DNA of 64,000 nt from Escherichia coli (GTDB lineage Bacteria > Pseudomonadota > Gammaproteobacteria > Enterobacterales > Enterobacteriaceae), in NCBI RefSeq assembly GCF_041248615.1, contig NZ_CP158426.1. One strand, written 5' to 3'. Numbering within the stretch: position 1 is the first letter of the stretch; each line of letters opens with the position of its first letter. This document shows, one piece after another, positions 57,001 to 60,000 of the stretch. Made by a program: the position numbers.

Positions 57001-60000
57001 CCATCGACGGCAGTGCCGCGGAAGGGGACGATGAAATCGCTCCGGAAGTGGACGTTGACGACGAGCCAGAAGAAGAATAATTTTACTTCTTCATGCCAAA
57101 AGGGAGCTATCTCCCTTGTTTGAATTGAAAAGTCCAGGCTGCAAAGTCTGGGCTTTTGTCGTATTAGGGCGCGGTAAAGTTTTGCTGTGCTCGTAAAAAA
57201 TGGCTGGCTATACACAAGGAATGTGGCAATGAGTGGTGAAAAAAAGGCGAAAGGCTGGCGGTTCTATGGTCTTGTAGGTTTTGGCGCAATAGCACTGCTT
57301 TCCGCTGGCGTCTGGGCGTTGCAATATGCTGGCAGTGGGCCAGAAAAAACGTTGTCGCCGCTGGTGGTGCACAACAATCTGCAAATCGATCTCAATGAGC
57401 CGGACCTCTTTCTCGACAGCGACTCTCTGAGCCAGCTTCCCAAAGATCTCCTTACCATTCCGTTTCTCCACGATGTTCTGAGTGAAGATTTCGTTTTCTA
57501 TTATCAGAATCATGCCGATCGTCTGGGCATTGAAGGCAGCATTCGCCGCATTGTCTATGAACACGATCTCACGCTGAAAGATAAGCTCTTTTCTTCACTC
57601 TTAGATCAGCCCGCGCAGGCGGCGCTATGGCACGATAAACAAGGCCATCTTTCACATTACATGGTGCTGATCCAGCGCAGTGGTTTAAGCAAACTGCTGG
57701 AGCCATTGTTGTTTGCCGCTACCAGCGACAGCCAGTTAAGCAAAACGGCAATCAGTAGTATTAAGCTAAATAGTGAAACCATCCCGGTTTATCAGTTGCG
57801 CTATAACGGCAATAACGCCCTGATGTTCGCGACTTATCAGGACAAGATGTTGGTATTTTCCAGCACGGATATGCTGTTTAAAGATGACCAGCAGGATACC
57901 GAAGCCACGGCGATCGCAAGTGATTTGTTGAGCGGTAAAAAACGCTGGCAAGCCAGCTTTGGCCTGGAAGAGCGTGCTGCTGAAAAAACGCCAGTACGCC
58001 AGCGCATCGTGGTCAGCGCCAGGTTGCTGGGGTTTGGCTACCAGCGATTAATGCCTTCTTTTGCTGGCGTACGCTTCGAAATGAGCAACGACGGCTGGCA
58101 TAGCTTTGTGGCGTTAAATGATGAATCCGCCAGCGTAGATGCCAGTTTCGATTTTACGCCGGTATGGAACAGTATGCCTGCCGGGGCCAGCTTCTGTGTG
58201 GCGGTGCCGTATTCGCATGGTATTGCCGAAGAGATGCTTTCGCACATCAGCCAGGAAAACGACAAGCTGAACGGGGCGTTAGATGGTGCAGCCGGGCTGT
58301 GCTGGTATGAAGACTCAAAATTACAAACCCCGTTATTTGTTGGTCAATTTGATGGCTCAGCCGAACAGGCACAACTGCCTGGGAAACTGTTTACGCAAAA
58401 TATTGGTGCGCACGAAAGCAAAGCGCCAGAAGGTGTTTTGCCGGTAAACCAGACTCAGCAGGGCGAAGCGCAAATCTGGCGTCGCGAAGTGAGTTCCCGA
58501 TACGGTCAGTATCCGAAAACACAGGCGGCGCAACCCGATCAATTAATGTCGGATTATTTTTTCCGCGTGTCGCTGGCGATGCAAAACAAAACGCTGCTTT
58601 TCTCCCTCGATGACACGCTGGTTAATAACGCCCTGCAAACACTGAATAAAACCCGTCCGGCAATGGTGGATGTAATACCCACTGATGGCATCGTTCCGCT
58701 CTATATCAATCCACAAGGCGTGGCGAAACTGCTGCGTAACGAAACGTTGACCAGTCTGCCGAAGAATCTCGAACCGGTTTTTTATAACGCCGCACAAACT
58801 TTATTAATGCCGAAGCTGGACGCTTTATCTCAACAACCGCGTTATGTCATGAAGCTGGCCCAGATGGAACCCGGTGCCGCCTGGCAGTGGCTACCCATAA
58901 CCTGGCAGCCGCTATGAGGCACGGGCTGCTGGCGCTGATTTGCTGGCTGTGTTGTGTTGTTGCCCATAGCGAAATGCTGAATGTCGAACAATCCGGGCTG
59001 TTTCGCGCCTGGTTTGTACGCATTGCACAGGAACAGCTCCGCCAGGGGCCAAGTCCGCGCTGGTATCAGCAGGATTGTGCGGGCCTGGTGCGATTTTCGG
59101 CGAACGAGGCGCTGAAAATTCACGACAGCAAATGGCTAAAAAGTAACGGCATAGCAAGTCAGTATTTGCCGCCTGAAATGACGCTAACACCTGAACAGCG
59201 TCAACTGGCGCAAAACTGGAATCAGGGGAACGGGAAAACCGGCCCCTACGTGACCGCGATTAATTTGATTCAGTACAACAGCCAGTTTATTGGCCAGGAC
59301 ATAAACCAGGCGCTGCCTGGCGATATGATTTTTTTCGATCAGGGCGATGCCCAGCACGTAATGGTCTGGATGGGGCGTTACGTCATCTACCACACCGGAA
59401 GCGCCACGAAAACTGACAACGGAATGCGCGCAGTCAGTCTGCAACAACTTATGACATGGAAGGACACCCGATGGATACCCAACGATTCCAATCCCAATTT
59501 CATTGGCATTTATCGTTTAAATTTTCTGGCGCGATAGCAGCGTGCTTGTCCCTGTCTCTTGTGGGAACAGGGCTTGCTAATGCTGATGATTCGCTTCCTA
59601 CCAGTAACTATGCGCCGCCCGCCGGGGGAACATTCTTTTTGCTCGCTGACAGCAGTTTTAGCAGCAGTGAAGAGGCGAAAGTGCGACTGGAAGCGCCGGG
59701 GCGTGATTATCGGCGTTATCAGATGGAAGAGTACGGCGGTGTGGACGTTCGTCTGTATCGTATTCCTGACCCGATGGCATTTTTGCGCCAGCAGAAAAAT
59801 CTGCATCGCATTGTGGTTCAACCGCAATATCTGGGCGACGGGCTGAACAACACGCTGACCTGGCTGTGGGATAACTGGTACGGCAAATCTCGCCGCGTGA
59901 TGCAGCGTACTTTCTCTTCTCAGTCACGGCAGAATGTGACTCAGGCGTTACCCGAATTACAGCTCGGCAATGCCATTATTAAACCTTCCCGTTATGTACA

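Follow-up and report, generated by a model that had tools for sequence, protein, structure and literature searches.

Stop/start overlaps at yfaA/yfaT and eleven other Escherichia coli gene junctions: probably ordinary operon junctions with a pair-specific share of translational coupling

When the stop codon of one gene overlaps the start codon of the next, are the two genes translated together? The junction between yfaA and yfaT in Escherichia coli raises this question, and we addressed it using a 64-kb stretch of E. coli DNA that runs from nuoL to yfaS (the window). At positions 58914..58917, the yfaA stop codon and the yfaT start codon share the four bases ATGA, and this junction is one of 12 overlaps among the 36 adjacent same-strand gene pairs in the window (six 4-nt ATGA overlaps, five 1-nt overlaps and one 11-nt overlap). 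The original prediction, made from the sequence, took such overlaps to indicate translational coupling and to support the chosen start codons and the operon structure. We observed that the overlaps exist, that the annotated starts are conventional, and that the yfaA/yfaT overlap is conserved among relatives. With a probability of roughly 85%, we regard these sites as ordinary operon junctions at which a ribosome that has finished one gene can begin again at the overlapping codon; the coupled share of initiation would be specific to each pair, with free ribosomes supplying the rest.

The upstream stop codon shares four bases (ATGA) or one base (TAATG or TGATG) with the next start codon, and according to this reading a ribosome that ends the upstream gene would already be placed on that start codon. 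It could then re-initiate there part of the time (termination-reinitiation), and the remaining initiation would come from free ribosomes recruited via a Shine-Dalgarno (SD)-like sequence inside the upstream coding region. Experimental evidence comes from menD-menH, which belongs to a set of five native E. coli ATGA pairs assayed with dual reporters and transcript quantification (Huber et al. 2019, PMC6728339). Approximately 60% of menH initiation needs ribosomes that reach the menD overlap and approximately 40% occurs de novo, and menH reinitiation is lost when the menD stop codon is shifted 38 nt upstream (Huber et al. 2019, PMC6728339; Huber et al. 2023, PMC10666635). The published sequence of the wild-type menD-menH construct is found unchanged at 12991..13049 of the window. 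This published reinitiation pair is therefore itself a window junction, an ATGA with partial coupling, and we found no difference between the two. Three further ATGA pairs were strongly coupled, and thus four of the five tested pairs, including menD-menH, are coupled.

To place the yfaA/yfaT junction, we relied on a closely related genome. Of 5,426 complete E. coli genomes, 5,425 contain a match to a 6-kb piece of the window, and in two of these the match is 100%. NZ_OW967178.1 (1551017-1615016) is colinear with the whole window, from which it differs by 5 single-nucleotide polymorphisms and 0 indels. Given so few differences, the RefSeq/PGAP gene coordinates of NZ_OW967178.1 were carried over one to one. 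Every transferred coding sequence lying wholly inside the window has a start codon, a stop codon and no internal stop, with pseudogenes and a frameshifted insertion sequence (IS) transposase exempt from this check. On these coordinates, yfaA occupies 57229..58917 with its TGA at 58915-58917, and yfaT occupies 58914..59537 with its ATG at 58914-58916. Sequence and transferred annotation thus agree on the ATGA that had been predicted here, and the -4 spacing is the same in three other E. coli.

We then compared this junction among relatives, scanning one genome per species and using the best 80 of 511 relatives. The 80 loci come from Escherichia, Superficieibacter, Enterobacillus, Yersinia, many Pseudomonas and Methylobacter. 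Outside Escherichia and Superficieibacter, the C-terminal 200 residues of YfaA are 41-51% identical to those of E. coli, and YfaT homologues (DUF1175, PF06672) with 62-79% identity are found in Pseudomonas, Salmonella, Serratia, Aeromonas and methanotrophs. All 80 loci have TGA as the stop codon of the yfaA homologue, and the base that precedes it is G in 63 loci, A in 9, T in 8 and C in none. In 69 loci the last yfaA codon is a four-fold degenerate leucine codon, with CTG in 56, CTT in 8, CTA in 5 and CTC in 0. Fully conserved CTN leucine columns in yfaA were sought as an internal wobble control and none was found, and for this reason the codon usage of the same genes was taken as the baseline. 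By that baseline, CTC makes up 22% of CTN codons, while CTT plus CTA make up only 6%. The lack of CTC has p = 2e-8 if the loci are treated as independent, which they are not; parsimony on a neighbour-joining tree still requires a minimum of 7 changes, all between A, G and T, with none that yields C. Since C is the sole base that would destroy the start codon, its avoidance in 80 loci provides direct comparative support for the overlapping codon as the predicted yfaT start, and this is what is new here.

In 75 of the 80 loci, a signal peptide comes straight after the overlapping start, with a basic residue followed by a hydrophobic stretch and an AXA-like site, and the start sits 28-44 residues before a conserved FRAWF motif (likewise 75 of 80 loci). 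The signal peptides at the N-termini of YfaT homologues are variable, apart from a basic residue at position 2-3 that is nearly invariant. Five Pseudomonas loci (L017, L035, L038, L067 and L074) keep GTGA and carry 150-200 nt inserted before the YfaT signal peptide; in these, the working yfaT start has probably shifted downstream, leaving the overlap as a relic. Two other in-frame codons, at -31 (in E. coli, GTG 58887) and at -16, were considered as yfaT starts and rejected, as on reading the sequence both are NTGG and arise from conserved Trp codons in the yfaA frame.

These findings bear on the idea that the overlaps are artefacts of annotation, with gene finders biased towards start codons next to the preceding stop, and with arnF, glpB, glpC or yfaT really starting elsewhere in their longer frames. 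We consider this highly improbable. Longer open reading frames (ORFs) are indeed possible for four genes (arnF to GTG 18020, glpC to ATG 35291, glpB to GTG 36496 and yfaT to GTG 58887), and the predicted N-termini of YfaT homologues in public databases vary in length. For yfaT, however, the avoidance of C and the position of the signal peptide speak against an artefact, as do strong SD motifs at the correct spacing and matching cross-species median distances for glpB and glpC, and a GGGAG located 9 nt upstream of the annotated ATG for arnF. For menH, menC, menE, arnE, arnT, arnD and arnA, the annotated start is the first start codon of the ORF. Given that seven genes start at the first possible codon and that the other four starts are independently supported, mis-annotation is unlikely. 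The start codons and operon context put forward in the original prediction are upheld, with distances equal to those of RefSeq/PGAP and to those of a published K-12 table. As for mapped N-termini or start sites, a search of the TRAINSPOTTER supplements for six names (menH, menC, menE, arnA, glpC and yfaE) returned none of them.

The twelve overlaps in the window are as follows.

58914..58917, plus strand: yfaA stop and yfaT start, 4-nt ATGA; the focal site.
13038..13041, plus strand: menD stop and menH start, ATGA; coupling measured experimentally on the same sequence.
14668, plus strand: menB stop and menC start, TAATG, 1 nt.
15627..15630, plus strand: menC stop and menE start, ATGA.
17738, minus strand: arnE stop and arnF start, gtgTAATGggc, 1 nt.
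18070..18073, minus strand: arnT stop and arnE start, ATGA; no SD-like match upstream.
19722, minus strand: arnD stop and arnT start, TGATG, 1 nt.
20609..20612, minus strand: arnA stop and arnD start, ATGA.
22591, minus strand: arnC stop and arnA start, TAATG, 1 nt.
35213..35216, minus strand: glpB stop and glpC start, ATGA, with a strong GGAGG ahead.
36462..36472, minus strand: glpA 3' end and glpB start, 11 nt, with GGAGAAGGAG ahead; outside the strict NTGA, TAATG or TGATG geometry.
45538, minus strand: nrdB stop and yfaE start, TGATG, 1 nt.

The sizes that had been assigned from the sequence are correct for menD/menH, menC/menE, arnT/arnE, arnA/arnD and glpB/glpC (-4), for menB/menC, arnD/arnT and arnC/arnA (-1) and for glpA/glpB (-11). 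The arnE/arnF junction, which had been described as ATGA, is really a 1-nt TAATG on the minus strand with 17738 as the shared base. Ten of the eleven junctions on the earlier list are therefore right, and the 1-nt overlap of nrdB and yfaE had been left out of it. All six 4-nt overlaps are ATGA, a label that had been given to only three junctions, one of them (arnE/arnF) wrongly. That men, arn (pmr), glpABC and nrdAB-yfaE are operons is established, yfaA-yfaT-yfaS form an alpha-2-macroglobulin cluster, and overlapping genes leave no space for a terminator plus a promoter between them.

Are there more of these overlaps than expected by chance? The tetramer ATGA by itself is uninformative, as it occurs 554 times on the two strands of the window. 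The junction test therefore concerns spacing, and it takes as given the gene positions, which rest on protein homology. Among 18 same-strand pairs spaced from -20 to +20 nt, a spacing of -4 or -1 is seen in 11 (binomial test against a uniform spread, p = 9e-11; p = 9e-10 when only spacings feasible under the genetic code are counted). A chance ATG at the -4 or -1 position is found at only 5 of 41 other stop codons. Tight junctions (-8 to +6) account for 14 of 33 window pairs and for 707 of 2987 pairs genome-wide in E. coli (p = 0.013), a mild enrichment that we ascribe to three compact operons lying side by side. We also counted, without using the annotation, the NTGA and TRA-NN sites at which two open frames of 80 or more codons meet. 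This count failed to discriminate (10 for ATGA, 11 for CTGA), because alternative frames are often open.

Translation initiation at the overlapped starts was assessed by SD strength, calculated as the predicted pairing energy with the 3' end of 16S rRNA. Pairing is strong at glpB/glpC (-10.3 kcal/mol) and glpA/glpB (-8.0 kcal/mol), and weak or absent at arnT/arnE (+0.6 kcal/mol), yfaA/yfaT (-1.8 kcal/mol) and nrdB/yfaE (-2.2 kcal/mol). Overall, an SD-like match is weak or absent at half of the overlapped starts, which fits a reliance on the upstream ribosome. Folding tests gave no sign of a dedicated occluding structure at overlapped starts. A special RNA structure at yfaA/yfaT was considered and rejected, as its minimum free energy (MFE) of -33.8 kcal/mol corresponds to z = -0.09 relative to dinucleotide shuffles and its stability reflects GC content only.

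Several observations weigh against taking the overlaps as a general sign of coupling. First, bioB-bioF, also an ATGA pair, showed no coupling and initiated de novo in the reporter assay (Huber et al. 2019, 2023). It has an ATGA and a weak SD, as do yfaA/yfaT and arnT/arnE in the window, and unlike menD-menH it is uncoupled, which makes it a counter-example to reading coupling from overlap alone. Second, the relative translation of overlapping pairs varies genome-wide about as much as that of non-overlapping pairs (Kolmogorov-Smirnov p = 0.06; Burkhardt et al. 2017). Third, published translation efficiencies fall four- to fivefold across two 1-nt window junctions, from 0.831 for nrdB to 0.182 for yfaE and from 1.72 for menB to 0.41 for menC (Burkhardt et al. 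2017). Given the profiling data and these ratios, an overlap permits coupling and does not fix the protein ratio. Fourth, overlapped and non-overlapped junctions show no significant difference in SD strength (p = 0.17). Overlapped start regions have a lower raw MFE than those at other junctions (p = 0.017), yet MFE z-scores relative to shuffles show no difference between the two (p = 0.81), indicating that the lower raw MFE is an effect of composition. Fifth, selection acting separately on a start and on a stop codon predicts a conserved overlap, and the conservation of yfaA/yfaT is thus no proof that coupling is the selected trait; it backs the start codon more than it backs coupling. Finally, experimental evidence of coupling exists for only one of the 12 window pairs, menD-menH. 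At the other eleven junctions, coupling would be expected by analogy with the tested pairs, and its strength probably differs from pair to pair. The earlier claim that the overlaps indicate translational coupling therefore holds for menD-menH, where the literature supports a share of about 60%, and it fails as a general inference given the uncoupled bioB-bioF pair and the drops in translation efficiency.

Some of these observations would also be accommodated if the overlaps were by-products of genome compaction, in which a lost start or stop codon is replaced by the nearest usable one and the downstream gene is translated via its own ribosome-binding site. The -4 and -1 spacings would then simply be the shortest overlaps that the code permits, and reasoning from the genetic code bears this out in that standard start and stop codons cannot give overlaps of -2, -3 or -5. 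The origin of such overlaps is the subject of a published simulation study (PMC3887535). De novo initiation of bioF and of 40% of menH, the strong SD motifs at the two glp junctions, and the drops in translation efficiency at nrdB/yfaE and menB/menC all point in the same direction. On the other hand, four of five tested ATGA pairs are coupled, menD-menH among them; several junctions are essentially without an SD; and E. coli short-distance pairs are 4.5-fold enriched for subunits of the same complex, with glpA/glpB, glpB/glpC and arnE/arnF flagged as such in the window. On balance, we consider compaction alone to be unlikely, and we favor ordinary operon junctions with a pair-specific coupled share.

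Such junctions have already been catalogued. Table S2 of Huber et al. (2023, PMC10666635) gives for K-12 the same distances that we observed here, namely -4 for yfaA/yfaT, glpB/glpC, arnA/arnD, arnT/arnE, menC/menE and menD/menH, -1 for nrdB/yfaE, arnD/arnT, arnE/arnF and menB/menC, and -11 for glpA/glpB. The same source gives cross-genome median distances of -4 for MenD@MenH (189 genomes), -10.2 for GlpA@GlpB (149 genomes), -3.2 for GlpB@GlpC (138 genomes) and +3 for NrdB@ferredoxin (132 genomes), and distances of -14 for glpA1/glpB1 and -4 for glpB1/glpC1 in Haloferax volcanii. That study also reports -4 and -1 as the commonest same-strand spacings, both for E. coli and for a set of 1,695 species, and the geometry of this genome-wide class in bacteria and archaea (ATGA, TAATG or TGATG) is the same as that of the window pairs. 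In comparison with this class, glpA/glpB, at -11, belongs to a rarer class of longer overlaps, and tight junctions are slightly more frequent in the window than in the genome as a whole. The complex flags in the table mark glpA/glpB, glpB/glpC and arnE/arnF as complex and the other nine pairs as not complex. The overlaps are thus a common arrangement, and the observation is real yet ordinary and already known.

A system comparable to the focal genes is the magABCDEF alpha-2-macroglobulin operon of Pseudomonas aeruginosa (PMC5764988, PMC3735191), in which, judging from gene order, yfaA, yfaT and yfaS would correspond to magB, magC and magD. P. aeruginosa MagB binds and stabilises MagD, the signal peptide of which is 21 residues long, and MagC forms no stable binary complex with MagD (PMC5764988, PMC3735191). 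No complex of YfaA and YfaT is known, and the pair is listed as not complex by Huber et al. (PMC10666635).

The next junction of the same cluster, yfaT/yfaS, raises a separate question. Its four bases, at 59534..59537, are ATAG, and yfaS is annotated from GTG 59561, 23 nt past the yfaT stop codon. The gene, of the alpha-2-macroglobulin family, is open from 59561 to the window end at 64000; it is annotated as a pseudogene in two other strains (L084 and L085), owing to an internal stop in K-12 MG1655 and to a frameshift in one O157:H7 strain. When the window is counted together with the 80 relatives, 69 of the 81 loci have ATGA at this position, and there YfaS opens with a canonical signal peptide about 20 residues long. 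Escherichia (the window, three other E. coli, E. whittamii and E. albertii) has ATAG; ATAA or ATAG is present in Superficieibacter, P. flavescens and one Pseudomonas metagenome-assembled genome; and two Pseudomonas species have CTGA with no other start nearby; the loci without ATGA include L003-L006, L019, L028, L036 and L041. A single G-to-A change from ATGA to ATAA keeps the yfaT stop and destroys the yfaS ATG. Downstream of the ATA, the sequence is still signal-peptide-like, and the annotated GTG leaves only 8 residues before the predicted cleavage site. In S. electus, no ATG, GTG or TTG occurs for 25 codons at the yfaS start region.

In the lineages with ATAG, ATAA or CTGA, yfaS is under strong purifying selection, with a ratio of nonsynonymous to synonymous substitution (dN/dS) of 0.03-0.08 over 800 codons. 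In 75 of 80 loci, A is the final base of the last yfaT codon, even though in the same genes CGA accounts for 10% of CGN codons and CAA for 30% of the codons for Gln. Upstream ATGs at 59456 and 59471 are conserved, and they are by-products of Trp codons in yfaT. The candidate yfaS starts are a near-cognate AUA, presumably used by reinitiation, and the upstream ATGs at 59456 and 59471. That ribosomes terminating on yfaT initiate YfaS, with its signal peptide, at AUA (CUG in the two Pseudomonas species) is a tentative proposal that we consider doubtful.

The genes of the window lie in this order: nuoLMN, yfbM/L, elaD/rbn/elaAB, menFDHBCE, pmrD, arnBCADTEF, ais, nudI and yfaZYX-rhmD-yfaVU, followed by rpnE, glpABC, glpTQ, a LysR/MFS pair, inaA, IS1397, nrdAB-yfaE, yfaL, ubiG, gyrA and yfaA-yfaT-yfaS. 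Codons 83 and 87 of gyrA (54699..54713) are TTG (Leu) and CAC (His), corresponding to S83L and D87H at the classical quinolone-resistance positions. The otherwise near-identical NZ_OW967178.1 has the wild-type Ser and Asp, and the two changes are among the only five differences in 64 kb. Three features are strain-specific. One is elaD (6693..7917), which is annotated as a frameshifted pseudogene. Another is an intact LysR regulator and MFS transporter (40822..43063) between glpQ and inaA; in the K-12 distance table, which omits pseudogenes, glpQ and inaA are neighbours, 462 nt apart, with no same-strand gene in between (Huber et al. 2023, PMC10666635). The third is a copy of IS1397 (IS3 family) at 43873..45221, between inaA and yfaE. 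The 3' ends of pmrD (plus strand) and arnF (minus strand) overlap tail to tail by 7 nt at 17352..17358. At the glpT/glpQ junction (39719..39729, TAATGGCATGA), a mini-frame of two codons, ATG GCA TGA, shares 1 base with the glpT stop and overlaps the glpQ ATG with its own TGA as ATGA, so that it spans the 4-nt gap; this mini-frame is probably due to chance.

Taken together, the overlaps confirm the conventional gene starts and the operon layout of this region, and they fit a textbook feature of bacterial genomes. The analysis also carries a caution, in that an overlap is not to be read as equal or obligatory co-translation of the genes that share it. The start of yfaS is the only point that might repay experiment: if AUA initiation were true, coupling at yfaT/yfaS would be tight enough to permit a non-canonical start, and the annotated yfaS GTG would be wrong.

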